A stretch of DNA of 20,000 bases from positions 47,541-67,540 of the forward strand of contig MEDY01000133.1 in assembly GCA_001724265.1 (NCBI GenBank). The letters are read 5' to 3'. The notes beneath the pieces were generated by a model. The model searched no databases, was not told the origin of the DNA, and saw nothing but the letters and a program-made list of their open reading frames with translations. The number at the start of each line of letters is the position of its first letter. Positions within the stretch are counted from its first letter, which is position 1. This document shows, piece by piece, positions 1 through 20,000 of the stretch. The translations under genes were made by a program, and so were the position numbers. The DNA is from Rhizaria sp. SCN 62-66. Its lineage: Eukaryota.

Positions 1-555
1 GCTGCTGCAGATGCCACGGGGCGACTTAACTTCTTCGATCTGCTGCGTGATACCGAGGCGCCTGTGACGGGGATCACGATCCGCGAACTCACGAGTACTG
101 GTGGCAACACCACCGCGGGTACGACCGGTACCGATAATAATAATAACAACAACAACAGCGTCGTGAGTGCCCTGGCGGTCGGTGCCATGGCCAAGGCTCT
201 CGGCCTCGGTCCGTCCGCCTCGGCAAGCGGCCTAACTTCCTCCGCCTCGGCGGCGGCAGGCGGCTTGACTTCCGACGGCGCTGCCCAGGGCGTGAACCGC
301 ATCGAGTGGTCAACCGACGGTGCGCATCTGGCTGTTGGCACCACTGCCGGCGCACTGCATATCGTAGCAGTCGGTGGCTCTCTGCTCAAGGTTGTTCCCA
401 AGGCTAGTGAGAGGCTGTCTGCACTGAAGCTGCGCCTGGCGTCTGGCGCGGCGGCGGCGGCGGCGGCGGAGGCAGAAGCGGACGCGCTTGCAGCGGCGGC
501 GGCGGCGGCTGGTGGGGCGACTGAGAGGAAGGAGGATACCCCGATCGCGGCTTAA
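1..555 (+). CDS. DYNC1I: Cytoplasmic dynein 1 intermediate chain (WD40), C-terminal part; 5' truncated by window
   Basis: Frame 1 is open from base 1: AAADATGRLNFFDLLRDTEAPV...GVNRIEWSTDGAHLAVGTTAGALHIVAVG..VVPK. This resembles, from memory, the last WD repeats of dynein-1 intermediate chains (DGMGRLDLWNLNNDTEVP...ALNRVRW..SG..IAVGD..G.I.IYDVG). It ends at TAA 553-555 with a drop in GC content afterwards. Confidence 0.78.
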   Translation, partial: AAADATGRLNFFDLLRDTEAPVTGITIRELTSTGGNTTAGTTGTDNNNNNNNSVVSALAVGAMAKALGLGPSASASGLTSSASAAAGGLTSDGAAQGVNRIEWSTDGAHLAVGTTAGALHIVAVGGSLLKVVPKASERLSALKLRLASGAAAAAAAEAEADALAAAAAAAGGATERKEDTPIAA

Positions 556-1732
556 CTTGGAGAGTTAGGGCAAAGGTGGCTTCGCTTCTTCGTACGATTG
601 TAAGGAGAGAGATTTTGACTGTGTACCGTTGTAATACGCTTTGTTTTGCTGTTCTATTTTGTTCTGTTTTTGTTTTCTTTCTTGCTCGACTTTTAAGAAT
701 GTTTCTATTGTTCGATCACCCTATTTGCGAAGATAGGATTGGCAAATGATCAAGTGTGTTGGACCGAATGTCTGAGTTGCTGTCGCCTTCGTGTGTCCCA
801 TCCGTGAGCAATAACACTTAAATTACGCTTATAAATACATGCATTGGTCCTAATACACGAAAACACGAGTGTTCTCGAAGTTTATCTGTTGTTTGTGCGA
901 TCGTGAGTACTGAAGTGTGAGGAAAGAGTGAATAGCTCAAAGAATACAAACATTTACAACGCATCAGTCAAACTTTTTAGACAGATCTACAAGTTATTTT
1001 GTACAATTCGAAAGTATTATGAATCTCAAAGCGTGTATACGGCTGCAAAGCATGGACGACATAAGTGTTCTACACTTGTGGTGATGTTAATAAATCGGTG
1101 CATATCCGCGGACAATGAACTCATAATGGTAAGAAAGTTGCATTCAGTCTAGTTAGGCATTGTTTTATATGTGACGTTTGTGTAGCATCGTGTGATACGC
1201 TTATTACGCCGAGATACGTATGATAATGTGCTCAATTTGCGGTTCTTACGTTTTCGCGGCTCTGACTGGCAGCGAGCTCCTTTGAATCGAAGACGGAGTC
1301 GTTGAATGGTTCTATAACTTCCACGATGCATAATATTGTAATTTATATCAAGAATTGATATTTCACTTTGGTTTAGTTTGTCACATTGCTATTGACGGTG
1401 TTTGCAGTTTGTTCTATTCAAAATTCGACTGTCATGCGCACTTCGCAAGTCAGCAAACTGGAACAAGCATAATTGCAGCTGTATCGCATCGCCACTGAGC
1501 CCCTAACCGAAACTAGATAAGCCCGCCAATATTAATCTATGTATAGAGCCTTTAACATACTTGTTGTGTTCTGTAGATATGCTTGTGTCGCTATAGAGAG
1601 CAAAATGCGTTTTGCCACAGGCACCACGCACCTCCCTGCTGTTCACCCTCACACGTTCGCTCACAACTCTCTCAAATCTCACACATTATCCCTATAAATT
1701 GATGTTGCCGCTTCTTATGGATGTCGAAAGTC

Positions 1733-3520
1733 ATGGCTGCTGAGCGTATTGCCGTTGGGCAATGGGTACACACGCTGGAGGCCGATCCTGCCTGGCTCGA
1801 GGTCGGTACGTCCCTCTCGAACAAACCCCATAAAACGTTCTCGACAGCCGCATTAAAAACGTTTCTTAGCAAAACCGCGTTGCCCAGATATGAGCCCTAT
1901 AGATTTTATATCTGATAGCATAGTACGTATCTTTAAAGTGCTTATATAAATGAAATAATCTTGTTTTTGTCTACTTAGAGAACCGTCCCTGGGCGAACGA
2001 AAACGCGCGTTGGACCCACTCCGGCTGCGTTGGCTACGATTTCGTTAACTTTGACCCCCGTGTCAAGATGCGTTTCTTCTGGAACGAGTCTACACAGACG
2101 TTGGCGGGCACGGTTGACTGGGACGAGACCACTGAGGGCCCTCCGAAGGGCGCGCACGGTACGTTTGAATGTCCACACAAAACAAACTTTATATTCACCT
2201 TAATCATCTTGAATTGATCAATTTTTGGGGTATGTGGTGTATTTCTACGTGTGCGTTTGTGTATTTTTGTTTCATTATTGTATGCCCTAATTTAATCGAG
2301 ATTATTTCTTGTTTGTTATTTTCATCATGTGATGCTCCTCTAGGTGCCAGTATCATGATGGTGTTCGATGAGATTCTCGCTTACCCTGTCTGGCGCTCCG
2401 GTGTTCCCGCCTTCACCGCAAACGTCAACATTAACCTCCGCAAGATGGTACGTGATCTCCGCCTCCCTTTTCTGTTGTATCACTGATCCTGGGCTTCTAG
2501 TCACATGGCTCCGTATACTGGTTTATCTCACGTCATTCCTGACTTCTTACCGGTGGCTGCGTTGTATAGGTTCCCTTCAACACTGCGGCCCGCTTTGAGT
2601 CCCGCGTTGCCCGCTCTGAGGGCCGCAAGCGCTTCTTGGAGGGCGCTATTTACTCTGCCGACAAGAGCATTAAGGTACAAATCGTAGACTTTAACATCTT
2701 AAAGATTGCATACTGCACTTAAAATACGATATAACATCAATTGCGTGTATTTCTGCATGTATGCAAGATATTTCTCGGAACATTGAGATATCTCGACGTC
2801 TTTTCACTTAAATATCGTCCCGTCATCACATTATCATCACTTTTTGATCACTTTTGCGCTTAGTATGCTGATGCGACTGGTCTCTGGGTCGTCTCGAACG
2901 GCATTGGTGGCTCTTTCGCAGTCTGGGGTGAATCCCTTGCTCAAGACGCCGCTCGTAACGCTTCCACCCTCACAATTGCTCCTAGTTCGAATACTGTGAC
3001 GGATTCCAGCGCTAGCGCCGGTGCCGCTAGCGTCAGTTATGTGATCACTGACCCTGCTGCCCGCGCTTTGTCGCATCCTTACGCGCCCTCCGCCGCCACA
3101 GACGCCGCCCCCGGCCGCATTGCCCAGCTCACGCACGCCGAAGCCTCGGCCGCGGCCTCTGGCGTCGCGCCCACGGTCACTCAGAATGGCGGCAACAACC
3201 CCTCCGCTGGGGCCGCTGCGACTGCGAGCGGAGCGGCTTTGCCAGTGGCAGCGGATGGTGCGGGCCAGTCATACCGCCACTGGGTGTCCCCACCGCCGCC
3301 GCGCGACCGCGTTCTGCCTTTTTCCCGCGCTTCCCCGGCCGCTGAGAGCTACATCTCGGCCTACGAAGCCGCCGCGAGGGAGACGGAGCGTCTGGCGGGG
3401 CCGGCCGGGTTGTTTGGCCGGGCGGTCTATCGCCAGGCGCTGCCCCCGCCGCCGTCAGCGTTCGCGGTTGCGGGGGGCAGCGCAGGCGCGGCGGCGGACA
3501 GGCTGGTTGCGCGGCTGTAA
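1733..3520 (+). CDS. Hotdog-fold acyl-CoA thioesterase (PaaI/THEM4-like), 5 exons, ~372 aa, C-terminal PTS1-like ARL
   Basis: Exons 1733-1805, 1979-2158, 2344-2447, 2570-2674 and 2864-3520 join in frame via GT-AG introns. The spliced protein contains EGPPKGAHGASIMMVFDE (GPP..HG...FDE motif), AFTANVNINLRKMVP, EGRKRFLEGAI and YADATGLWV. An alternative in-frame ATG lies at 1721. Ends ...LVARL-TAA. Confidence 0.85.
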
Positions 3521-3655
3521 GTGGCGGGATGAGCGCAGTCTTGCATGGTAAATCAGGCGTTGAGAGAGGGAAAGGAAACTCGTCGTCGTGAAGCATGGAG
3601 GGGGGTGGATTGGCGTGTTGGGCAAGAACAGAGTGGAAACGTGATGGCTGTATGG

Positions 3656-3661
3656 AATAAA
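3656..3661 (+). promoter_or_regulatory. Candidate polyadenylation signal AATAAA for the thioesterase gene
   Basis: AATAAA ~135 nt after the TAA stop, followed by GT-rich sequence; the hexamer alone is weak evidence. Confidence 0.25.
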
Positions 3662-5022
3662 CAGCGCACTATTGTGAATATAGAGCTGTCTCGGTGATTG
3701 GTAGTGTTGTTTAAGTTTGACATGTGAATGGGAATGGGTGGATATTCTGCGTTTAAACGGGCTAACAGGTGTTGAGCAGAGGAGCAAGTCACTCAAATAA
3801 GTAGGAATATGCACGGCAATATGATATCTGGTACTAGTACCACTTTTGTAGAAGTAATAAAAAGAACAACAGAACGCATGTCCGAGAAAGTGGGATGTTC
3901 AAGTGACACTAACGTGGACAGTGACAAGGTTTTGATTGGAGGAACGATCGTTAGTAACGCATGCACTAAAGCGCGAAAAACGGCACCATGCTCTGATAAT
4001 ACGCGCAATGAACAAACAAAATTGCATATCCTGATAGAACAGACAACGATACATCTTCTGCCGGAGGTTGCAATGTTGCATGCGTCAGGTTGACAGTGTA
4101 CGAGCGCAAGAAATAGCTTGCACGTAGCAGGAGCGAAGATGGCGCGAGAACGAATAATGCGTGAAACACTGCATGGATCGGCGTTCTTTGTACCTTGTGA
4201 CGCATTTAAATGCGCAACACAACCGGTGGTTTCTTGCGCGCGTGAAGGATGCACGACTCTATGATTTCGTAGTCAGGAATATCGAGAAATCTACCTGTCA
4301 CCGGGAGTGCTCGCAGACGCGGCAGTTATCTTGAGCAATTTTTGCCCGGCAAATCTCAAAACATGCGTGACTCTTCAGTGAAAGAAAGTTACAGAAAATG
4401 GTGATTCAATGCGGTGTCTGTCACAAGTGCGTCGTGAAATCTCATTTCATGTCATTTGCAGAGCGCCAAAACGAATTGAAGTCGCTCTTCCCAGTCAAGT
4501 GTCCATGTACAGTTCGTGCGATGCGGGCAATCGCCACCATCACTTTTTGTTTTCTGCTGCCACACTCGGCGGGCGATTTGGTTCCCGCCCTGATATGCGT
4601 CGTAGAGCGCGATTATATTGCTGATTGTGCAATGATTAGTAGCTGGTGTTGTCTATGGAACAGAATTTACTGCACTTGTATCTCGTCGGTATCGGTATTC
4701 CTTGATCTTCTTGACCCAGTCCGAGAGTTGAGCTTCCTTGCCCGAGCACTTTGTTAGTTTGCCTCTACGACTTTGCCACGGCGGCAACCAACCATCATTA
4801 AGTGATGCTCATTTTCTCCCCTGTCTTTCCTATCCCCGCGCACATGCAGCACGACAAACTGCGCAAACAACCGCGCTCACCAACCCTCTCGGTGCTTCCG
4901 TCTGCCCCAGCCCCAACTTCCATCCCGACTTGCGGTGCAATCTTTCTTTTCACATTGATCTCCCACCGCGCGGGCGTGCTACCTTTTGCTTCTCACGGCT
5001 AACCCCGGCGTGTTTTAACGTC

Positions 5023-5482
5023 ATGGACCGTAAGTCCGACTCGGACGCGCTGCGCGACGCACGCAGCCTCCCAGACTCTCGCGACTAGACTGCTCGAGAA
5101 GCTACGCTCCACACCCATCCGCCCACTGCAACTCAGCCCCCGTCGCCGTCTCCACAGCTGCAACAGTCGCAGCAACCACCACCGCGCCGTGATGCGCCGC
5201 CCGACGACCCTTCTGCCGCTGGCGCTGCCCCTGCCGCTGCTCCTGCTGCTGCTGTTGTAGCGCTTGGCGGTGATCCTGGCTCTACTGGCAGTGCAGCTCC
5301 GGTGGGAAAGCAAGCCGTCACGACAACAACTACGGTGACGGCGACTACGCCTGCACTGGTGGTGGCGGCCGCGGCGCCTGTCGCAGCAGCATCCGCCCCT
5401 GTTTCTGCAGTTGCTGCGCACGCTCCCATCGCTCACGCTCCCGTCGCGGCTGTTGATGCTGCTGCTGCTGCTGATGCTGCTG

Positions 5483-5543
<61 letters not shown>

Positions 5544-5798
5544 GGGGACTGCATCGGCGACGTCGAGCCTCGACGTAAGCGCGGCTGCGTCAGCTGCTGC
5601 GACTCCGGCCGCCGTCGCCGCCACCACTGCCGCCGACTTCGCCGCCACGACTGACAGTGGCGCCGACAGCGCGCGCGCGAGCGGCGCACCGAGTATGCGC
5701 GCCAACAACACGGCCGCGACCGCTGCGGACCCGGCTGTGGCGACGACGACGGCTAGCCCCGGTTCTGCTGCTGCGAACGTCCACAACAGCAATTACCA

Positions 5799-5830
<32 letters not shown>

Positions 5831-8800
5831 CGTCGCAGCGTGTGGGGGCGGCTGTCCGTTCCCACAGCGCATCAGCAAGCGCTCCGACCACCGCAGCAAC
5901 AGTCGCTGTATCAGCAGCAACAGCAACAGCAACAGCAGCCGCGAGCAACATGAGTGTGAATCATGCGCACATGACCAAAGCGTCTGTGCTGACTCCTGTG
6001 TCCGCGCCTGCGCCTGCGCCTGTGGGCACTTTGAGTGACCCTACGGCGGAGGCAACGATGGCTAAGGCTCAAGCGAAGGGGCAGAGTGACGGTGTGATGA
6101 CACCGCAACAGCAGGATCTTATCAACCAACGGCACCACAACTACATCTACTAGTACGTCAGCGTCTCTTAAATAGCGTTCTTATGTCACAATAATATTTT
6201 AAGGGCTCTTTAGGCGAATGCAGGTTGCATTTTCTTTAGTAGGCGCGAAAGCACGTGCACTCGAAACCACACTTTTAGAACGTGTCTTCGATATCAATCG
6301 ATTATGTTGATGTATTCTTGTGTTAGTGTATGATTATCTAACAACATTTGACTTCACGTTGATATTTTTTCATATATTTAGCTTTCGCACCCGTCTGTGC
6401 CCTGCTGCCTCTGCGGCCGCCGCTGCCGCCGCTGGCTCTGGCTCCAACTCTGTTGCCGACGTCATCGGTTGCCCCTTGGACCGTAACGAGTGCTCTGACG
6501 CTCATACGGTCTACCACTTACGCAGGCAACCCTTGCTCGTACGTCGTCACCGATTCGATTCTAAGTGCTTCACTAGTCAGCAGCTAAGTGAACCTCGACT
6601 TGTGACTCCACTTAAGTTTGACAATCACGTTCTCATCTTTCTGAATTAATTTCTTTGTTTTTGTGTTTATTAATTGCAGGACTTGCGGTACGGCCAGTAC
6701 CCGCACCCCTTGGGCCCCGCCGCCCCGCTGTGGTCTTACAGCGCCGTGCCCTGCCTCTTCTTCTCTCTCACCGACTGCCCTTTTGGCGCCCACTGCCCGT
6801 TTTCACATCGGGCACAGCTGGAGTCGGCGTATCACCCCAGCGTGTTCAAGTCGCAGATGTGTTCCGCGCCCTTAGACCCGCTAAGCACCCCCTTAGAAGG
6901 TCTAAGTACTGGGCACGGTGATGCTGATACCAGCAACTGCGGGCTTTTCTGGTGCGCTGCCTATGGTAAGCATTGCTCCAAGGCCCACAGTCCGGCTGAG
7001 CTCCGTTTCCCTCCCAACACCACCACGGGTACCCCCGCTGGTACTGGCACTGAGCCCGCCGCGGGTTCCAGCGGCAGCGGCAGCGTAAGTGCTTCCTCTG
7101 CGACTGTTGCTGCCGCCGCCGCCGCTGGCACTGCTCCCCAGGGCCACTCTGACTGTCTCCCTGACCCTCCCCAACACCGGACACTGCTGCAAGCCGTGCG
7201 TGAAGTCCTCTTCCGCCGTCTGTTGACCGACAGTGACCGTGCTGCCGTGAAGCGGTTCGGACATCTCAGAGGCCGTGGCGAGTGGGCGAACGTGCGCCGG
7301 GCGCCGGAGCTGGCGGATATCTACACAGCTGCACTTGCCACCCTCAATCTCAACAGTAATAACAACAACAATAGCAACAACAACAGCAACAACAACAGCA
7401 ACACCAACGCTAGCTTGATTCCTACTGCAACGATCCCTAGTAGTCACACCCTGGGGGGTGTTTCGAGCAGCAACAGTTACCAGCAACAGCATCAGTACCA
7501 GCAGCAGCAACTGCAACAGCAGCAACAACAACAGCAACAGCAGCAGCACAACATCAGCGGATCCTTGCAAAACGCGAGCGGGTTAACTTCGAGCTTCGCG
7601 ACAATGGATGCAAACAGCAGTCGCGCGAGTAGTCGTCCTGACTCGCGTCTAAGTGCGCACAGTCACCAGCACTTACCCTACCACGTCCAGCAGCAGCAGC
7701 AGCAACAGCAGCAACAGGCTGCCGGCAACGCTGCTGTTGCGGCTGCGGCTGCTCACGGTCACCCTGCGAGTGCTTCTGGCGGCTTCGGTCAGCATATGCT
7801 GCACAAGGTGCCGTCTTTCGGCTCCCACAGCCACATTCACAGTCATACTGCGTCCCCTGCGCACGGTCACAGCCATGCGCACAGTCACCCTGCCCACGGT
7901 CAGTACGCACCGCCTCTGGGCGCTGACAACGTGGCCGCTGCTGCTGCGTATCAGCAGCAGCAACAGCAGCAGCAGCAGTACCAGCCGCATTATTACCTGC
8001 CGCCGCCTTCTTCGCAACAGCAACAACAACAGCAGCAGCATCCTCAGCAGCAACAACCGCCGTCTCAGCCACCGGCGCAGTTGCAGCGCCATCAACCGCT
8101 GCAGTTACACCGGCGTACCCACAGTCACTCGTCCACGAGCACCAACGCGAGCACTTCATCAGGCGCCCACGGTCACGCTCACGGTCACCCTGCTGCCCAC
8201 GGTCTCGGTCATCCGACTGCTCACGGCCACGGCCACCCAGGTGGGTATCTGTACCCGCATCCTTCCGCTGGCTCTGCACACGGCCACCCTGCTGCTCACG
8301 GTCACCCGGCGGCTGCCCACGGTCACCCGACTGCGTACGGCCACTCCTCTGTGCCTCAGAGTGCGAGTGGTCCCACTGGTGGTCGTTTGCGGTCTGCGGC
8401 AGCGTCCGCGGCCGACTCCCGCTCTCTCGTGCACCTCATGAGTACTGCGACACACGTGGCCAGCGCGCACGCCGATGCTGACGGACCAGACGCAGATGCT
8501 GCGGACGTTCCAGACGCCGGCGCTGAAGCCTCCGCTGCCGCTGCCGCGGCCGCTGCTGGTGCTGGTGCAGTTGCGCCAGAGAATCCTCCAACACCCGCCA
8601 CTGCGACGATCATTGTCACTGGTGCGGACCACGAGTACGCTCACGGTCACCCGGGTACTTCTGCTGCTCACGGTCAACATGGTACTCACGGTGCCCACGG
8701 TCAGCCGCCGAGTGCCGCGGATGCGTACAGTGCGATGCTAGCTGCGTCTAAGGGTGGCGCCACGGCGGGTACTTACACGGAAGTAAGTGGGGCCCAGGTG

Positions 8801-11800
8801 GCGCCGGTGTACTTACACCATGCTAGCGGGTACTTACAGCACCCTCAGCAGCAACATCAGCAGCAGCAGCAGCAGCAGCATCAGCATCACTTGCAAGAGT
8901 ATCCGTACAATGCAAGTCACAAGGGCAGTCACATTACACCCAACAGCAATCCTGACTCCATTGCGTTCGTGGCTCCTGCTCCTGGCTCTGGCTCCGCTGC
9001 TGCTAGTTCTGGCTCTGGTTCTGCGACGTCCTCGGCGAACGCCGGCGCTCTCAGCGGCGGCAACGGCCACCATCGGCGCCACAACTCTGCCGCGTTTGCA
9101 TTCCATAACAGCGGCGCGAACAGCTCTAACTCGAGCGCGAATTCGAGCATGTACGTGAACAACGCGAGCTCGAGCGGCGCAGTTGTCGCCGCCGCTGTTG
9201 CTGCAGCAGCGCAAAGCCGCTTCATTAGCCATAGCCGCAGCCACAGCCAGAGCCAGAGCCAGGGCCAGCCGTTTGCTGGCATGGGTACTCATGGCGCTTA
9301 CGGTCACTTGTCTGCGCACGGTCACTTGCAACTCTCGCGCGGGCATACGCCGAATCTGAACAGCAGCAGTCTAAGTACCCCCTTAACCACTGCTGCGACA
9401 GCGCCCTTAGACGACATTGAGCTTCGGAGTATGTCGATCGCAACTCTGCTCGCCAACGCGCGCCACCATCTAAGTAGCACTCCACAGGGGACACACACGA
9501 GCCCTGCGGCGACGGGGGCGAATGGTGCTGCGACGACCACTGTCAGTGTCAGTGTGCAGAGTAGCGGTGGCGCGGTCATGACGATGGGCTGCAACCGGAA
9601 CAACTGCTCGTGCTGTAGCGATGTTCCACTCTCTTCTGAGTCAGCAGTGCCTCAGCCGACAACTGCGACGACTGCGACAACGTCGACTGTTTCTGTGCCT
9701 GCTCTTGTGCCTGACAACAGGAACAAGACTACGATGGCGAATAACGCCAACAACAACGATATTAAGAACGCCAACATCACCACGATTACTACCACGGCCG
9801 CAACCAACGCCACGGATGATACCGGCGCTGCGGTTGCCGTTGGCAACAACAATAACAACACTAGCAACAACAACACGGCCCCTCGCATTGCTTCTGACGC
9901 TGTGATTGCTTACAAGACTGAGACTAAGCCTGAGATTACCACGACTAAGGCTGATACGACTGAGACTGTAACTGTACCTGAGCCTCCTACGAACGACAAC
10001 GAGATTGAGGCTCTGATTGATACTTCAGCGACTGAGACCAATCCGATGATTAAGACGGATTCTGATTATGTCTCAGCTTCCGCCTCTGTGTCGGCTCCCG
10101 CGACTTTAACTGCAACTGCAACTGTTCCTGTGTCCGTGACCGTGCATGTGCCTGTGACCACACCTGTTGCTGCTGACGGCAACGTAGCTGATCCTATTGA
10201 TGACCCTGTCTGTACCTGCAACTCTATCGACAGCACGAACGCTGCTGCCGCTAACGTCGGCACTGCTGACTCGGGTGTTTTCAACGACAACAACACCATC
10301 AAGACTGAGTCGACGACTGTTCCTGAGGCTGAGACTGCAGTTGCCGCTGCAACCAAGCCTTCCGAGGCTGAGGCTGAGACTGCGATCGAGACTGCAACTG
10401 CAACTAAGACTACTAAGGCGGAGACTGCTGTTCCTCAAACGACGGACAAATGCAGTTTAGTCGTCGAGACTACTACTGACCCCGACCTAAGTACCCCTGT
10501 GGCGGCCGCCACGAACAGTCAAAGTACCTCGTGCGCCAACTCTAAGTGCATCCTGCGCCGTTTGCAGGATTGGCAGTCCCGTGAGGCGCCTGTCCACTTG
10601 GAGGTGATGCTCCACTACCAAACACGCGTGTGCAAGGGGTATTTAGACGGCGGCTCCTGCCCCTTACCGGCGTCTGAGTGTTTCGACACGCACGGCCCCG
10701 TCCCCTTACGCAGGGTTCCACGTATAAGTGCTTCAGGTAAGTACAACTACTACCCCGTCCGCTGTCGTCCACACAGGACGGCGCTGCTTGCTCTCACGCT
10801 TGCCAACAACAAGAACTCCGCCTCAGCCAACGCCAGCGCTAACTCAAACGCCACCGCCAATGCTCACAATGCAAGTGCGAACGTACATAGTGTCGATGCG
10901 GGGAACAGTTTCGGCGACAGCCATAGTAACTACCACCAGCAGCACAGCATCAGCGACTCGGTCGTCAGTGGTCACAGCACAGCCACACTGTACGCGGCGA
11001 GTAACAACATCAGCGCTGTGTCGGCCGCGGCGGCGTTACTCAAGAACGTCAACGGCTGCGGCGGCGCCGACTGCACGCACGCGCACAGTGGCGAAGAAGT
11101 CGTCTACCACCCGTCTAAGTACAAGACGCAGCTCTGCTCTAAGTACCCCCTTACCGTCGGCGCGGGGCCTAAGTACCTCCTGAGCACTTCTGATCACACC
11201 GCGGCTGAAATGTCGACCGCGAATGTAAGTGCCGAACATCTGAGTACCACGGACCACCACGCGAGCAATGTCCACAATCCTAACAGCACTATCATTGGCA
11301 GCGCGGAGGTGACTCCCGTTGCCGGTGTTCACAGTTCTAGTCCCAGCGCTAGCCTCACTGCTGCCGAGATTGTCATGGGCGCTAGCGCTGACTCTGCCGT
11401 TGGCTCCGGTTCATCTAGCTCCAGCTCCAGTTCTAGCTCTGGCTCTGGCGCTGCTGCTGCCCCAGGCGCGGACGCTGACGCGGGCGCGGGCGCTGGTATC
11501 AACTCTGGTACTGGTGTCGGGTCTGGATGTGAGCGTTTTGGTGGCTTTTGCGCCCGCGCCCACAGCCAATCCGACCTCCGCTCCCCCGTGCTCGACTTGA
11601 CTCTGCTCGCCAAGGCCGCTGCGAGCGCGCTCAACGCCGCCAGCGTCGCGACAACGGCCGCGACGGCGACGGCGGCGGGATGCGGGAGTCCAGCCAACAG
11701 CATCAAGACCACGCGCAGTGCCACCGCGAAATCGGGCAAGAAGCAGCAGGATAAGCAGCACCCTGGTGCGACGACCGGTGGTGGCGGCCGCAGCAACGCG

Positions 11801-14800
11801 TCGGATACGCATATCAACAACGTTCTCGGTGAGATCACTGCGAGTGACCGTGCGAGTGTGCCGAAACAGTGGCATGAGGCGCATTGGTGGTCCTTTGTGT
11901 GTCCGCCGTCGCAGCGGGAGCAGGAGCAGCATTACTACATGTTTCACTATAAGACACGTCCCTGTGCTGCGTTTAAGCCGCCTTCCATCCAAAACAACGC
12001 CAACGCTGCTGCTGGTAGCACTGACAATAACGACAGCGCTATTGCTACTGCAACTGAACGCGAGCAGCAGCAACAGCAGCAGCTGCCGCCGCAGCAGCAG
12101 TGTTACTGCTATGGCTTCGGCTACCACCGCGACGAGGAACGCCGCCGTCCTCCTTTCCCCCACGCCACTCCCATCCCGTGCCCCAAAGTCAAGCCACCTG
12201 TCGCCCACGGCGCCGCGGCCGCGCAGGCCGGCGGCGGCGGTCCTCAGGTCGGTGGCCAGTCAGTGTGGGGAGCACCTGGGTTCAGCCCCGTTGACGGCAC
12301 GTGCCACCACGGAGTGAGCGGTGCGGGTAGTCTGAGCGGTGTCATCACGAGCAGTGCGAGTGGTGCTGTGTTGCACTCGATTGCGCCTGTTGCTCCCCCT
12401 TCTGCTGCTGCTGCTGCTGCTGATGCTGATGACCAAAAGCGTCCGGACGCTGTGGCTGCGGACATTGAGACTTCTGCTCCTGCTGCTTCTGCTGCTGTCC
12501 CTCCGGCGACCACGAATCAGATACAGAGCCAGTGTGCATTGGCGCACACGTTCTTGGAAGTCATGTACCACCCGTCGCTGTACAAGACGACTCTGTGCTC
12601 TTTCTTCGACGCGACGAACCCTGCCCGCGCACAGTGCGTGTGGCGTCGCCGCTGTGCGCACGCGCACGGCTACGGCGAGCTAAGGGGCAAGGAGGCGGCT
12701 AAGGGGGAGTGGGCTGCGTGGGTAAGCGCGAGTCTAAGTAGCCACGGTCACACTGGGAGCGTTTCCGGTGTGAAGAAGAGCGTGGATGTCACCACGGGTA
12801 CCACGGGTTCTGCCGCAGCCGCCACCGCTGCTTTAGAACCGGTGATGGTGCCTTCTCCAGCTGATGCCACCAACGCCAACTCCTCTGACTCGGTGGCTGT
12901 GACCACCCCGACCGCGCCTTCCGACGCCGCCGTCGCGCCCACCGCTGCCAAGAGCACGATCCTCGCTGCGCCGCCGTCGCCCGCCCTCTCCAGCCGCACC
13001 GGTCTGCAAGCACAACAGCAGCTGTCGAGTGCGGCAACGTCGGGCGACGCGGCGGCTGCGGCGATGGCGATGCCCCGGTCGCCGCCGCAGAGCACGAGTA
13101 GGCCGCCGACCAGTTCGACCGCGTTTGTGCCCAAGGGCGGCGGTGGCAGCGGCAGCAGCTCTGCAGGCGCTGCAGCTTCGGGTGCTGCAAGTTTAAGTGC
13201 TTCCCGCCACCAGTCGTCTAAGGGTCACGCCGTGCCGAAGGGCGGTGTGCCACCTGCACTGCAGATCAACTCGCCCAACAAGTCGCCCTCGAACCTGCAC
13301 TTACACTCGCATCTGCAGCAGCCCCAGGGCCAGCAGTCGCATGGGCAGGGGCAGGGGCAGGGACAGGGACAGGGGCAGGGACAGGGACAGGGGCCGCCGC
13401 CGCCGCTGTCGACGCGTACCGTGGGGTACTTCGCGTGGGGATTGACTCATGGCAGTCAGCTGCCCCAGTCACAACCGCAGCCTCCGCAGCAGCACCATGT
13501 CGCTCAGGGGCACTTACAGCAGGGGCACCTACAGCAGGGGCACTCCCAGCAAGGGCTCTTACATGCGCCGAGTCAGAGTCACCTCCACTTACACGCGCAA
13601 CCACAGCAACAACAGCCGCGGGCGCAGCAGCCGCAGCAGTATGTGCATTCTAGCGCTCCTGTCCCTGCCCCTGGTCACGGTCACGCTGCTCCCCACGGTC
13701 ACCCTCACGCTCACGCTCTCGGTCACGGCCAAGGCCCCAGCCATGGTTATCATCCGAGTGACCCTGCTGCCGCCGCCGCCGCTGCTGCTGCCGCCGCTGC
13801 TGCTGCTGCTGCGGGCGGCGGCACCGTCTACGCCCACGGTAACCCGCACGGCCACCCTCCCCATATTGGAGATCCGGGGGTTGTCGGCGGGACCTACATC
13901 GCTCCTGGCGGCGCTACTTACATCGCCCCCGGCGGTGCTACTTACATCGCCACGCAGCCTGGCCAGCCGCCGCACCACGTCCAGCACGTGTACTTCTCGC
14001 ACCCGCCTGCTCACGGTCAGTACTTACACTACCCCCCCGAGCACTTACACCCGGCTCACCCAACCTCCGCACACCCACACCCACATACGCTTCAACATCA
14101 CCCCTCTCATCAGCAGCAGCATCCGCATCAGCAGTACGCAGCGCCCTTGGCAGCCGCCGGTGTGTCGTCCAGCAGCGATAGCGGAGCGACGACCCCTGTG
14201 CCAGTGATGCAAATGCCGGTGATGGCGTACGGCGTGCCGTATCCTGCTGGAGCCCCGCCGGTGTCTGTGGTGTCGCACGGTCACGGTCACTATGTGCCAG
14301 CGCACGCCCACAGTCTCGCTCACGGTCACCCTGCTGCAGCCTTGACGGCGGCCGCCCACGGCCAGCCTGTCATGTTAGCGCATCCGCCGTCGCAGCCTCA
14401 GCAGCAGCAGCAGCAGCAGCCGCAGCAGCAGCCGGAGTATCTGCACTTGCCACATCAAGTCGTGCTGAACCACCAGCAACTGCAGCACTTGCAAGCGCAA
14501 CAGCATCAACAGCACGCGCAACAGCAACAGCAACAGCAGCAGCAGCCTCAGCCTCAGCCTCAGCCTCAGCCTCAACAGCAGCATCAGCGGTATCCGCAAG
14601 GACAGCAGCAGCAGCAGCAGCCGCCGGGGGGTCAAAGCGGCAAGAAGCAAGGCGGCGGCCGTGCCGGCGGACAGCTGGCAGGCAGCGCTAGCCTCAACAC
14701 CAGCAGCGCCACTATGCGCTCTCTGCCACCGGCCCCGTCGGCCGCAGCGCCGCCGATTTCGCGCTCGCTCGGTTCCCCCAAGACTAGCCAGGCGGGTCTC

Positions 14801-15796
14801 GCGGGCGCTCACGCCAGCTCCTCCTCTGCTGCTGCTTCTTCTGCGACTTCTTCTGCGGCGGTGAATAGGCCGGTGCAGCATACGCTCTCTAAGCCGCCTC
14901 TGCTCACGGTCTCCACGGTCAGCGGCGGCGATCCTTCCGCAGTCACGGCCGACGACGACCTCACCGCGAGCGCCGCACCGCAGCAGCCGCAGCAGCAGCA
15001 GCACGCAGCCACGTCCGGCTCAGCCGCGGCGAGTGCGCTGCCTATCGTGACTGGACTGGGGACTCAGGGCCTCGTGTCACCGGCGACGGCGTTAAGCGTG
15101 GTGCATCGTCATATGTACCTGTTTTCACCGACTCAGCCGTCGCAGAAACCGCAACAACAGCAGCAACAGCAGCAGTAGCAGCAGCAGCAGCAGCAGTATA
15201 GCGCTGCGGGTGTGTCGTCTTCGTCTCTGTCTCCGCATCCTCGCGCACATTTACACTCGCACGCGCACACGCAGAATTCGCACTCGTACTCGCAGCAGCA
15301 GTCATACTCGCAGCCGCAGTCGCAGCTTTCGCCGCCGCCGCAGCAGCAGCAGCAGCACGTGCATGTAAAGCAGTCACAACATCAACAACACCATGTATAT
15401 TCTCACTCGCAATACCTACACCCTCAGTATCCACACCCTTACACTCATCCCGGCCAACGGCAACAACAGCAGCAACCGCAGCAAGCGCAAGCGCAGCAGC
15501 AGTCGCAACAACAGTACCACGGGCACGGGCAGCAAGGGCAGGGACAAGGGCAAGGACAAGGGCATGGACTGCACCAACAACACCAGCGTGCCGTCAACTA
15601 TAGCAGCAATCCGAGCAACATGAGTGCTCTGGGTGGTGCAAGTGGTTTGGCTGGTCGGCGTCCCTATAATAACAGCAACAACAACAATTCTAGTCAGCAA
15701 CAACAGCATGCAGCTTCAACGAAGGCTGTGGCTGCTCTCTCAACGACGACGGCGACGTCGACGACAGCAACGCCCTCTAAACAAACCCAACAGTAA
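5023..15796 (+). CDS. unk: Giant Unkempt-like CCCH zinc-finger RNA-binding protein (9 fingers), 3 exons, ~3467 aa if TAG 5086 and TAG 15176 are read as sense
   Basis: Exons 5023-6152, 6382-6538 and 6680-15796; introns 6153-6381 and 6539-6679 both start GTACGT. Splicing rebuilds HNYIYYFRTRLC..CPLDRNECSDAH..LRRQPLLDL..YSAVPC..CPFGAHCPFSH..ESAYHPSVFKSQMC..CAAYGKHCSKAHSPAELR. Further clusters: LHYQTRVC..CFDTH..LRRVP..YYPVRC..CTHAHSGEEVVYHPSKYKTQLC..FCARAHSQSDLR and YYMFHYKTRPC..GYHRDEERRRPP..CPKVK..CALAHTFLEVMYHPSLYKTTLC..CAHAHG..ELR, all typical of Unkempt. The conservative standard-code model is ATG 5695 to TAG 15178. Confidence 0.8.
5485..5541 (+). repeat. (GCT)19 trinucleotide tract encoding polyalanine
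   Basis: Perfect GCT run in frame with exon 1 of the Unkempt-like gene; the imperfect tract extends from ~5449. Confidence 0.95.
6153..6381 (+). other. Intron 1 of Unkempt-like gene (229 nt, phase 2)
   Basis: TA|GTACGT...TTTAG|C rebuilds a TAC codon giving YIYYFRTRLC; AT-rich. Confidence 0.88.
6539..6679 (+). other. Intron 2 of Unkempt-like gene (141 nt, phase 0)
   Basis: CTC|GTACGT...T-rich tract...TTGCAG|GAC; contains in-frame TAA 6647-6649. Confidence 0.85.
7481..8060 (+). repeat. Multiple CAG/CAA polyglutamine tracts (further tracts at ~5798-5829, 8845-8890, 14398-14620, 15152-15196)
   Basis: In-frame CAG/CAA runs visible directly. Confidence 0.9.
13343..13393 (+). repeat. GG(G/A)CAG hexamer tandem encoding (GQ)n; G-quadruplex-like G-tract array
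   Basis: gggcaggggcaggggcagggacagggacaggggcagggacagggacagggg. Confidence 0.85.
13892..13951 (+). repeat. 24-nt tandem repeat (2.5 copies) encoding TYIAPGGA
   Basis: acctacatcgctcctggcggcgct / acttacatcgcccccggcggtgct / acttacatcgcc; differences are synonymous. Confidence 0.85.
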
Positions 15797-18264
15797 CAGC
15801 AACGACAGGCACCGCAATAGCACATACAGACACATAAACAGTTCCGGCGAACTGAATTGTGTTACTATTTATTGCGTGTCTATTTATTCCACGTTTCCCC
15901 CCTTCTTAGTTGTTTGCTTGGATGGTGTGATCCCGCTGTGTCTTTCGTGCTTTTGTACAAAAATAACGTCTTTTGTTTGCGTAACAAGACTGGTTTTTTT
16001 GTTCTTTGGTCGTAAAATCACGATTTTTGATTGATTCAAAATTCATTTTTCTTTTCTCTTTTCTTTTCGTCTACCTTCGCTACCCCATATGTGTTTTATG
16101 TCTGCAGTGCAGCTGTATAATGCTTATCACTACCCTTGTCGACGTATCACGCGTACAATATGTTCCGTTTTAACTTTTATTTTTGAATGCAAACGTGCTT
16201 AGTATCACATAACCTTAATCGTAACTATAACTCAAGATTTACTCACACACAGTGCTTGACATATCCTGCGTATTACTGCTTAACACACAAGAACAGTCTC
16301 ACGTGTGTATGTAAATCCAATTTTCTTTTCCTTTCCCCCCTCTCGCCCTCTGTTTTTTGGTTTGTCCTCACATCTTATACTCTTCGTGTTTTTTTTCTTG
16401 TCATAATATTTTTTCACGACAATTTACCACTTTCTTTTTGTTTCTTCATATGCCTCTATTTTCATTTCTCATTGTAACGACTTATAATTAGATTAAAACA
16501 ATTAATTATAGATCAAACAAGCACTCCATCTTTCGTGAATCTTTGTGAAACGTGTTTTTCGCCCCCGTGGTCGTTTCGTGATGTTCTTTCCTCTTTTCGC
16601 TTTCGCTTGGTTTTTTTCAGTTCAGCATGCTTAACAACGCGATCTGCATGTTTTTGTTCGCGTTGGTCTTGTTGCTTAACTTAAGACGCCTGCCATTTCA
16701 TCATGTCTCGTTGGATTGTATCTCCGCGCTATACTTCTCTAGACACTCAGTGAAAACCAACCACAGAACTTTCGCAACGTAACAAGTACGCATGCGAACG
16801 TGCTTTCGTTGTGATTATAACTGGAGCTATAGAAAATGGCACGAGCTGTTTCAAAATGCACTCGTTTTAGCAAACGCTCGTGTCATATAGCATAACGCTA
16901 GGTGATTACTTTTATCAACAGCTTTGGCAAAGAGCTTATGACGACATGTAGGTCCTTGTGTGACTGCGTGTGTAGTCACGGCTTGCTGCAAGAGTGGATG
17001 TGTGACAAACAGGCAGGACGTTAGCCCCCTAGTTCCTCTTCCTCGCTCCTCTTCTTTCGTCTCTTCTTGTTTTGATGTTTCTTCTTGTTTCCGGAATTAA
17101 TTTTTTCAACATTTTTTTTTATGTGTTAAACGACTGAAACAAACGTGCTTTGACGCAATATTCGTTCTCCATCTCCCAAACAACACCAACATTCACGCAC
17201 TCATAGTCACAAATTCCGTGGCAAGGCAGTCACATTGTTCGAAGTGATCGCAGTTATTGTTCTCTGCTCACAACCGATCCTGTGTGATCACTGCTGCTGC
17301 TGTCACTGCCGTTGCTATCAACCGTCTGTGCCTGACTTGCCTTCGCTACTAATGCTATTGTTAGAGCGTCTTCCTAATCTATGTTGTTCTTTGTTGGTGG
17401 TTGCACACGAATGCCAATCTGTATGCGCCGTAGCACGCTTCTTTCTAAACCCCCCAAATCTTTTTTCTCTCTCATCTCTCATTTTTGTGTTTGTCTTTTT
17501 TTACATTCATCTCTCTATTGTCATGATATCCCTTCTCATTTTGTCTTCTGCCCATACTCTTCTCAGCTACACTTCTTCCTTCATCCGTTTCTTATAATAT
17601 TCCGCTTGTATCATCACTATCACGTAACACACACCACCACCATTCTATCCCCCGAAACAAGAGCAATAGTACAACACTCGCTAAATAGCAATGTCAATAC
17701 ATCTCATTTTGTCAAAGAACTTAAAACGCATAGCAAACCGCAGTACACTGTACTGCTCTTGAATGAAGCGAAGCGTGTGAACATCAATGATTGAAGCTGG
17801 AGTAAATAGATGTATTATATTATATTATATTACGATAAAGTAATGCTATGAATAGTGAAACTAAGAAATTATAACGTTGACGAAATCAAAAACAAAAAGA
17901 GATATGAAAAAAAATAGATCGAGAGAGAGAAAGTACAGTAACACTGACATCAACAGTCCCACTCAGGGATACATTGAGAATCAGCCTTACCGATTACTTC
18001 TTCTTAAATACACCACGCATATCAATACCCACGCACTAATCAGCACTCGTAACACGCATATACGAGTGAGGTTGTGGTGTGATTTATATCTAGATATGCA
18101 CGGGCCAGACTGTTTCACATGAACAGTCCAGGAAAAAACACACAGCACAGCACAAGCGCTGCGGCGGCGGACACACAGGGAGGACACGTGGCGGCCGAAA
18201 TTCTGAAGCACCCGTCACGCCTGCTTGTTGTCTTGCTTGTTGTCTTGCTGACGTGCTGATGTAC

Positions 18265-19967
18265 TTACTTGTTGACGTTGTTGACGAAGCGGCTGCCAGC
18301 AGCGAGACCACGAAGCGCAACAATGCGCGTGCTCTTAGACGCAGTCTTGCGCGCAGTGGGGTCGAGAATGCGCTTGCGCAAACGGAACGACTTAGGGGTC
18401 ACCTCAATCATCTCGTCGTCGCGGCAGTACGCGATCATCTCTTCCAGGGTCATGCGCTTGGGGGGAGTAAGGCGAGTCTTCTCCTCCTTAAGCACGGAGC
18501 GGACGTTGGAGAGCTGCTTGGCGCGCACAGGGTTGAGCTCGATATCCTCCTAGAAAAGCATTAAGTAAAACACAAAAGGATATGTTTGACGGCGAAGATG
18601 TGAGGGCTTCCGAATAAAACTTAAGACATAGCTCCGTATATGCATAATACAGTTTCACGTTGAAATGTAAGATATATGCGATTTGTTGATGCTATTACGT
18701 ACCTGACGGGAGTTCTCGCCGATGACCATGCCGCGGTAGACCTTAGTGCCCGGCTCAACAAACAGGGTACCGCGGGACTCGCAGCCTTCGAGCGCGTACA
18801 GCGTGCACGGTCCCTCCTCGGTGGAGATGAGGGCACCCTTGTCGGAGCGCTCGAGCTCACCGCGGAAAGGCACGTAGTCGAGGAAAACGGTGTTGATGAC
18901 GCCCTGGCCGCGGGTATCGTTCATGAACTCACTGCGGTAACCGAGGAACCCACGGGTCGGGATGTGGAACACGAGACGCACACGTCCGTCGCCGAGAGGG
19001 TTAAACTCCTTCATCTCACCGGACCGCTTCGAGAGCTTCTCAATGACGGAGCCAGACATGGGCTCGTCGACATCCACGGTCACTTCCTCGATCGGCTCGA
19101 GGAGGTTGCCGTCCTTGTCCATGTCGAAAACGACCTAAATTAATATGAGAGCGCAAGAAGAACAAAGCGAAGTTGAAGATGAACAAAAAGCCAACAATGA
19201 GTCAAATAGATAGAGATAGAACTTTTAGAGCTTGAAACTTAAGCAAACAACGAATGAACAATAAATACACATGAAAAATCACTAAATAAGACTAGACAAC
19301 TGTGATATATGTGTGATACATTCCACATACCTGCGGGGGGCAGACGGCGAGCTCGGCGCCCTCACGGCGCATCGTCTCGATAATCACACCCAGCTGCATT
19401 TCACCGCGTGCGTGCACCTCGATCTGCTCGCGCGACTGGCCGGGCTGGAGGCGGATCGACACGTTGTTCTCAGCCTCACGCTGCAGACGGAGGCGGAGCG
19501 CGTTGGACGTGAGGGTCTGACCCTCCTGGCCGTTGAGCGGGGAGTCGTTGACAACGAAGGTCATTGACAGCGTGGGCGGGTCAATGGGGATGGAGGGGAT
19601 GATCTCAGTCACGGACGGGTGGCACAGCGTCGAGTTGACCGTGGCCTGATCGAACCCGGCAAGCGAGATGATATCACCGGCGTGGGCCTCCTCAACGACG
19701 AAGCGGTTCATGCCGCGACGGCGCAAGATCTTGAGCACCTTGGTGGCCTCGAACTCCTTGCCCGTCTCGTCCAGCGCCTTGACGGCGTCGCCAGGACGAA
19801 CGGAGCCCGCAGTGACGCGGCCGATGAGGCACTTACCGAAGTAGGGATCGGACTCGATCTGCGTCACGAGCATCTTGAACGGGGCGTCGCGGTCAACCTT
19901 GGGCGGGTTGATGTGGTTCAGAATGGCGTCGAAGAGAGGGTGCATATCGCCGCCCTGCTTGTCAGCG
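18265..19967 (-). CDS. typA: TypA/BipA ribosome-associated translational GTPase (nuclear-encoded, probably organellar), 3' part; 5' exons outside window
   Basis: Exons ~19967-19331, 19134-18703 and 18549-18265 (introns GTATGT..TAG 196 nt and GTACGT..TAG 153 nt). Motifs: DPYFGKCLIGRV, PPTLSMTFVVNDSPLNGQEG, ARGEMQLGVIIETMRREGAELAVCPPQV, LEPIE, PTRGFLGYRSEF, VYRGMVIGENSR, KQLSNVRS, DEMIEVTPKSFRLRK. Stop TAA. The upstream boundary of the first visible exon is uncertain. Confidence 0.93.
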
Positions 19968-19977
19968 CTGTCAAGGT

Positions 19978-20000
19978 CACACACACACACACACACACAC
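19978..20000. repeat. (CA)n microsatellite, runs off window end
   Basis: cacacacacacacacacacacac. Confidence 0.95.

Follow-up and report, generated by a model that had tools for sequence, protein, structure and literature searches.

The 20,000-nucleotide stretch of contig MEDY01000133.1 from Rhizaria sp. SCN 62-66 analyzed here (the window) comes from a eukaryotic contig, with GC-rich exons (0.55–0.73) and AT-rich introns and spacers (GC content 0.34–0.47). It carries a long plus-strand gene for a protein with CCCH zinc fingers, and the reading frame of this gene contains two TAG codons, at 5086–5088 and 15176–15178. A first-pass annotation had proposed that TAG is a sense codon in this organism, likely for Gln, with TAA retained as stop. 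We favor, with some reserve, an account under the standard code in which the gene has recently gained a true stop at TAG 15176 and TAG 5086 lies in a leader open reading frame (ORF) or in a 5′ intron. Our spliced model of the gene comprises 10,404 nt, or 3,468 codons, in three exons separated by two introns, with the following features.

4682–5022, plus strand: 5′ leader, with upstream ATGs at 4805 and 4844 and negative codon log-odds in all frames
5023–5025, plus strand: ATG proposed as the start by the first-pass annotation, with G at −3 and G at +4
5023–6152, plus strand: exon 1, Ala/Thr/Gln-rich, with further in-frame ATGs at 5695, 5950, 5971, 6058 and 6097
5030–5098, plus strand: candidate in-frame intron that would remove the first TAG, 69 nt, GTAAGT donor, GAG acceptor, GC 0.67
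5086–5088, plus strand: first in-frame TAG, codon 22, in the context GAC TAG ACT
6153–6381, plus strand: intron 1, 229 nt, GTACGT donor, TTTAG acceptor, GC 0.36
6382–6538, plus strand: exon 2, part of the first CCCH module
6539–6679, plus strand: intron 2, 141 nt, GTACGT donor, TGCAG acceptor, GC 0.38
6680–15175, plus strand: exon 3 as far as the second TAG, with repeated Unkempt-like CCCH modules and long low-complexity stretches between them
6680–15796, plus strand: full extent of exon 3 if TAG 15176 is passed, closing at TAA 15794–15796
15176–15178, plus strand: second in-frame TAG, codon 3262, the stop of the gene under the standard code
15179–15793, plus strand: tail of 205 codons, Q/H/S-rich, open and coding-like in the same frame
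15794–15796, plus strand: TAA closing the long frame, the frame end if the TAG is passed
15797–15820, plus strand: Q-rich codons past that TAA, seven in frame (QQRQAPQ) and then an in-frame TAG at 15818

Both TAG codons are indeed present and in frame in the spliced three-exon model, as the first-pass annotation had stated. The model's frame is stopped solely at codon 22 (TAG), codon 3262 (TAG) and codon 3468 (TAA), and the other two frames contain 69 and 138 stops. An apparent further TAG at 6151 is split by the donor of intron 1; on joining, TA|C reads as Tyr and the frame is kept. The model aligns over both exon junctions with a homologous 792-residue ORF (L002) from an unrelated metagenome contig (E = 4e-24), and because this alignment covers both junctions we regard the exon structure as sound. 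Contigs assembled from polyA RNA lie on the gene, for example at 6760–7333, 9008–9293, 11375–11693 and 14635–14935.

The 3,468 codons include high counts of Ala (610), Ser (407) and Gln (329). Gln is specified by 242 CAG and 87 CAA codons, so that the scarcity of TAG that the earlier annotation had conceded amounts to 2 of 331 Gln-type codons. Leu is specified by 168 codons, with TTG and CTG at 25:50. The gene encodes 14 Gln runs of at least five residues, 108 residues in total.

The protein contains recurring C..C..C..H modules followed by YHP..YKT..C, a pattern that is Unkempt-like. It shares these recurring modules with Unkempt-like and other tandem CCCH RNA-binding proteins, and its relatives include L002 and 69 representative proteins. 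Unlike the members of the Unkempt-like families, however, it stays below the Pfam thresholds (20.8 bits for zf-CCCH_UNK against a cut-off of 31.1, with zf-CCCH_2 likewise sub-threshold), and unlike the 792-residue L002 relative it is approximately four times longer, by way of Ala/Ser/Gln/Pro/His-rich insertions between the zinc-finger modules. The 69 proteins were matched in a HMMER search of the last 1,200 residues against 1.84 billion representatives; none reached E ≤ 1e-30, and the best stretches all fell in query residues 61–433, that is, in the zinc-finger part and the stretch just behind it. The remaining approximately 1,000 C-terminal residues, including the tail behind TAG 15176, found no homologue in this search; direct comparison gave no match better than E = 0.82, and for the tail against the matched proteins the best E was 1.4. 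Word-index protein searches with the C-terminal 399 and N-terminal 142 residues returned no match and missed the window's own ORF as well. A metagenome scan for relatives of the gene yielded two zinc-finger relatives only, at 39–40% identity; prokaryote genome contigs, scanned as possible mis-binned contigs, yielded none, and a further scan of such contigs yielded three Verrucomicrobia TypA loci only, at 39–40%. In keeping with the earlier statement that both TAGs lie outside conserved domains, homologue matches are confined to the zinc-finger part, and neither TAG falls at a conserved position in the HMMER matches, the direct tail comparison or the L002 alignment; both lie in unconserved low-complexity sequence.

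The two TAG codons and their surroundings

TAG 15176 is embedded in a polyglutamine run, CAA CAA CAG CAG CAA CAG CAG CAG TAG (CAG)x6, with eight Gln codons before it and six after it, and is a single transition (C>T) away from CAG. The assertion that open, matching sequence follows both TAGs held up: the frame remains open to 6152 behind the first and for 205 codons behind the second, and GC periodicity and codon log-odds continue. The tail behind TAG 15176 scores 0.67 bits per codon, compared with 0.57 under the same model for the 205 codons before the TAG, and contains no stop in frame versus two and six in the other frames. Simulated sequences (first-order Markov, 2000 replicates) left the tail open in 39 cases.

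How much an open tail can say about function depends on how quickly it would close. Among the 1,845 single-base changes in the tail, 104 create a stop, 55 of these being C>T at CAG or CAA; by our own arithmetic, a neutral tail would gain about one stop per 0.03 substitutions per site. Because such a tail would stay open until approximately 2–3% divergence, its openness only bounds the age of a truncation. Since Q-rich codons continue in frame past TAA 15794, we suspect an earlier truncation of the same kind, and the QQRQAPQ stretch appears to be left over from an older CAA>TAA change that shortened this tail. We rejected a recent duplication of upstream coding DNA as the origin of the tail, the only matches being of microsatellite type and of at most 96 nt.

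At the 5′ end, the ATG at 5023 was not confirmed as the start. A contig of the polyA RNA run X7 (record 25) covers 4682–4891, a stretch of the leader that holds ATGs 4805 and 4844, so that other AUGs come before ATG 5023 in the transcript. The long frame is preceded by two or more upstream ORFs, among them 4805–5002 (65 codons) and 5023–5088 (21 codons), and out-of-frame ATGs occur further on at 5192 and 5456–5483. A consensus GTAAGT lies at 5030, 7 nt past ATG 5023, with in-frame acceptors at 5098, 5101, 5260 (TAG|C), 5296 (CAG|C), 5314, 5386 and 5389.

The read evidence consists of assembled contigs of four runs, and contigs lose rare variants; it draws neither on the small-share runs X9–X12 nor on the stretches that the RNA of X7 leaves uncovered (1–2668 and 16009–19343). 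Contigs assembled from DNA in two further studies, X3 record 2 (1516–5441) and X4 record 11 (4623–5416), carry the identical codon at TAG 5086, which goes against the base-call error that the first-pass annotation had allowed for. At 15176 that check is less complete: no differing letter is reported in the contigs of other runs, but no listed piece demonstrably spans the site. At position 11472 an A/G difference appears in the contigs of all four runs (three studies), a pattern that either two strains living together or a fixed heterozygous site would produce.

The organism and known UAG codes

Words from the window were found in runs from bioreactors, wastewater and activated sludge. Six studies produced these runs; one is a polyA RNA library, and one run holds 99% of the words. 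The best marker in the window is a TypA/BipA gene on the minus strand. A search with a TypA exon returned 984 proteins. The closest was an environmental protein (90% identity), and among those with an organism name the EukProt sequence of Guttulinopsis vulgaris came first, at 72% identity over exon A; the next named eukaryotic matches, from two zoopagomycote fungi and a euglenid, reached 55–56%. In a 41-row likelihood tree of TypA the window pairs with the 90%-identical environmental protein (SH-aLRT 100), and the window and row P0072 fall in an 11-row clade (SH-aLRT 98) of which Guttulinopsis is the only named member. One of the ten best zinc-finger homologues examined bears an organism name, that of Paulinella, another cercozoan. 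With TypA as a good marker and the CCCH homologue from Paulinella as a weak one, these sequence comparisons point to a cercozoan near Sainouroidea. Sainouroids (Rosculus, Guttulinopsis) are reported to be abundant or active in sewage (PMC8827150).

Reassignment of UAG alone, with UAA kept as stop, is already known. In the rhizarian exLh, a member of Sainouroidea, UAG specifies Leu: 384 in-frame UAG occur in 71 genes, mostly at conserved Leu positions, and genes end with UAA (56 cases) or UGA (15 cases) (PMC5304391). In Iotanema spirale UAG specifies Gln, 204 UAG occurring in 126 genes, and UAA is the main stop (104 of 119 complete transcripts) (PMC5304391). The ciliates Hartmannula sinica and Trochilia petrani likewise read UAG as Gln, and within a single ciliate class UAG alone has been reassigned several times independently (PMC11687900). 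For eRF1, which is not encoded in the window, the N-domain features relevant to such codes are the motifs GTS, NIKS and YxCxxxF and position 69 (PMC5304391). Guttulinopsis vulgaris, the sister of exLh, uses the standard code, and all but one of its available transcripts end with UAA; no in-frame UAG survived checking there, the lone candidate being a sequencing error, and in Rosculus one gene ends with UAG (PMC5304391). A literature search on sainouroid codes, on the available parts of the sources, found nothing relevant beyond PMC5304391, and the paper on Rosculus vilicus (PMC10770858) mentions neither genetic code nor stop codons.

Even if TAG were sense in the window's organism, that organism would thus be a further member of a known code type. 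The gene resembles those of exLh in having only TAG in frame and TAA as terminator, and the organism falls in the TypA clade of Guttulinopsis, the sister of exLh. It differs in that approximately 4,300 codons of the window contain two TAG, none at a conserved site and one inside polyglutamine, from which the amino acid cannot be inferred. Iotanema, Hartmannula and Trochilia have the code that the first-pass annotation proposed, and UAA is the dominant stop in Iotanema; however, they are unrelated (a fornicate and two ciliates), and the evidence there comes from hundreds of genes and conserved positions. Indeed, UAG makes up approximately 8% of Gln codons in Iotanema (PMC5304391), compared with 0.6% of Gln-type codons in the window's gene. 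Guttulinopsis vulgaris is the closest named TypA relative and has all-TAA ends without any reassignment.

Weighing the readings of TAG

In the account that we favor, the organism would keep the standard meaning of TAG, and 15176 would be the present stop codon of the gene, created when a C>T mutation struck a CAG of the polyglutamine run. The truncation would have removed a dispensable, fast-evolving low-complexity tail, presumably too recently for the 205 codons to have decayed. TAG 5086 would then lie outside the translated message, either within a short intron beginning at GTAAGT 5030 or as the end of the 21-codon upstream ORF; in the latter case translation may begin at a later ATG, at 5695, 5950 or 5971. 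The model and L002 are homologous only from model residue 358 onward, a point 55 residues inside the L002 ORF, and a start at ATG 5950 (M310) or 5971 (M317) would yield a normal N-terminus. Nonsense truncation of CAG/CAA-rich disordered tails is a general population-genetic event, and the gene shows what such an event would leave behind, namely a C>T change at a CAG in a repeat, open coding-like sequence behind the stop, and the loss of no conserved motif. Here, however, such an event would leave the other in-frame TAG, close to the 5′ end of the same gene, to be accounted for separately by an intron or an upstream ORF.

A number of observations weigh against this account. The 10.4-kb, repeat-rich model contains no frameshift, no in-frame TGA and no premature in-frame TAA, and both of its internal stops are TAG. 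Behind TAG 5086 no stop interrupts the frame before exon 1 ends at 6152, and both GC periodicity and codon log-odds are coding-like; just 39 of 2000 simulations were equally open over the 202 codons to the next in-frame ATG (5089–5694), and 10 of 2000 over the 287 codons to ATG 5950 (5089–5949). The 20 codons from ATG 5023 to the TAG are preferred ones and have a mildly coding score under a codon log-odds model trained on the window's other genes, a score that only 5.6% of 5,265 non-coding windows reach. The candidate intron at 5030–5098 combines a GC content of 0.67 with a poor GAG acceptor, whereas the verified introns have TAG or CAG acceptors and, where measured, GC contents of 0.36 and 0.38; their donors are GTACGT or GTATGT, unlike the GTAAGT at 5030, and GTA[ACT]GT is common by chance, occurring 17 times on the plus strand, 7 of these within exon 3. 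None of the 15 RNA joints listed, of 84, corresponds to an intron at 5030. These 15 are repeat artefacts, with 20–23 letters on the shorter side and no GT..AG ends, and the missing joint is uninformative because the sparse RNA contigs show no joint at the two certain introns either. Upstream of TAG 15176, none of the 18 GT sites within 377 nt matches GTA[ACT]GT, and splicing out of that TAG was rejected for want of a consensus donor. Finally, the organism is placed with the sole rhizarian clade known to hold a UAG-sense lineage.

This last point, which puts the prior for a sense UAG far above that for a eukaryote picked at random, gives some standing to the reading, unlikely in our judgment, that TAG is sense genome-wide, as Gln or (as in exLh) Leu, with TAA as stop; the gene would then encode 3,467 residues from ATG 5023 to TAA 15794, and TAG would still be rare because of a recent reassignment or poor decoding. 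Coding-like sequence flanks each of the two in-frame TAGs, TAG 5086 is unchanged in the contigs of two other studies, and a CAG>TAG change within polyglutamine would be silent if TAG were Gln. TypA groups with Guttulinopsis (72% identity; 11-row clade, SH-aLRT 98) and a CCCH homologue comes from the cercozoan Paulinella; Sainouroidea holds exLh, G. vulgaris hardly ever stops with UAG (PMC5304391), and UAG alone has been captured repeatedly in one ciliate class (PMC11687900). The gene ends in the window are also TAA in four of four cases and TAG in none, a count of four genes only in which homology backs the TypA end alone. All-TAA ends nevertheless carry no weight for a code change because they are the habit of the standard-code relative G. 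vulgaris too. Against a sense TAG stand the figures for its usage: in the long gene its two occurrences compare with 331 Gln-type codons in total, or with 168 Leu codons, and it is none of 857 codons elsewhere in the window (455 TypA codons aligned to homologues and 402 in the exons of the first gene and of the gene ending in ARL), in line with the earlier report of no in-frame TAG in these exons. Rather than recurring in many genes at conserved residues, TAG occurs twice, in one gene, among approximately 4,300 codons examined. By analogy with the TTG:CTG ratio of 25:50, an old code with TAG as Gln should give tens of TAGs, and at 2/331 and 0/857 only a very young or very inefficient reassignment could look like the window. 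Each TAG, moreover, has an ordinary explanation, the 20-kb window contains no tRNA gene, and it was chosen from a very large scan for its two stops, which favors rare accidents. It is doubtful that we are looking at a sewage cercozoan near Sainouroidea with UAG as sense and UAA as stop, caught very early with UAG at approximately 0.6% of Gln-type codons. Were it so, the capture could be a second independent event in the exLh clade or the low-usage beginning of the very change seen in exLh, in a group whose members had nearly abandoned UAG terminators beforehand, a proposal that we put forward tentatively and think improbable. From the window alone we cannot tell which code is in use, and Leu is as much a candidate as Gln for the meaning of a sense TAG.

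Two further readings leave the code unchanged. TAG 15176 might be leaky, some ribosomes reading it with a near-cognate tRNA to give a form 205 residues longer that ends at TAA 15794, with selection keeping the tail open; we hold this to be quite improbable. The usual near-cognate tRNA in UAG readthrough is Gln-CUG, a C after the stop is the leakiest context in eukaryotes, and CARYYA/CARNBA is a readthrough motif. The base after TAG 15176 is indeed C and the tail is open and coding-like, but this +4 base is all that fits, the downstream hexamer CAGCAG not matching CARYYA/CARNBA. The tail holds no conserved motif or homologue in the searches above and would be expected to stay open for some time without selection, and TAG 5086, whose next base is A, is left unexplained. 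Weak recognition of UAG is conceivable where it is nearly unused as a terminator, as in the relatives (PMC5304391). Less credible still is that the gene is a decaying pseudogene or that the TAGs stem from faulty assembly or base calling or from minor alleles. The gene does have two premature stops, no listed contig piece of the other runs demonstrably spans 15176, and contigs may have lost rare variants. However, 3,467 codons of repeat-rich sequence without a frameshift, TGA or TAA, in which both interruptions are TAG, disfavor a pseudogene; TAG 5086 is identical in the contigs of two other studies, polyA RNA contigs lie on the gene, and the A/G difference at 11472 was seen in four runs, so that variants are detectable, and none is reported at either TAG. 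We also rejected a code in which TAA and TAG both specify Gln: TAA ends TypA where its homologues end, and GC content and periodicity are soon lost after TAA 15794. We know of no pyrrolysine at UAG in eukaryotes.

If truncation combined with a leader ORF is correct, as we think likelier, finding open, coding-like sequence past a stop says little in favor of a code change in CAG/CAA-rich genes, where a single transition turns any Gln codon into a stop. If TAG were instead sense, a free-living, abundant and metagenome-assemblable organism would display the rarely seen first step of stop-codon capture, and its position beside exLh together with its very low TAG usage would make it an attractive case. 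It would then also complete a graded series, from exLh (complete) through this organism to Guttulinopsis (UAG avoided), with which the uncoupling of UAG from UAA could be examined.

Neighboring genes and their stops

The other genes of the window supply three further TAA codons.

553–555, plus strand: TAA of the first gene
3518–3520, plus strand: TAA after a product ending in ...ARL, inside GTAAGT 3517–3522 (CTG TAA GTG)
19331–19981, 18703–19134 and 18268–18549, minus strand: last three exons of the TypA/BipA gene, with TAA at 18265–18267

The long frame closes at TAA 15794 and the other three genes end in TAA (553, 3518, and 18265–18267 on the minus strand), as had been described. The argument that TAA is a real stop fared unevenly: it stands for TypA, whose TAA falls where solved BipA structures and two full-length relatives have their C-terminus, whereas the ARL end is putative. 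Two of the three neighboring TAA stops are in fact found in GTAAGT (3517–3522 on the plus strand and 18263–18268 on the minus strand, AAG TAA GTA). A phase-2 GTAAGT donor would mimic such a stop in an ORF scan; the TypA stop is true by homology and the ARL stop putative. The labels "dynein" and "thioesterase" given to two of these genes found no support, the single exons concerned (1–552 and 1954–3517, respectively) having no match in Pfam. Nor was there any Rfam match in the window.

GTACGT is a recurrent donor hexamer in the window, at 1806, 1923, 2159, 2448, 6153 and 6539 on the plus strand and at 18702 on the minus strand. Of the four verified introns, three use it as donor, and the gene upstream of 3520 has four more copies; the fourth verified intron (19330, minus strand) has a GTATGT donor. 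The spacer after the ARL gene has a strong GC skew (+0.37, at 3501–4000) that neither an ORF nor a family match accounts for. In the TypA tree the sequence of the window is one of 31 rows, of 41, that form a eukaryotic clade (SH-aLRT 100) nested among alphaproteobacterial TypA. Chytrid and zoopagomycote fungi and a euglenid are also in this clade, and the TypA of the window is probably of the mitochondrial type.

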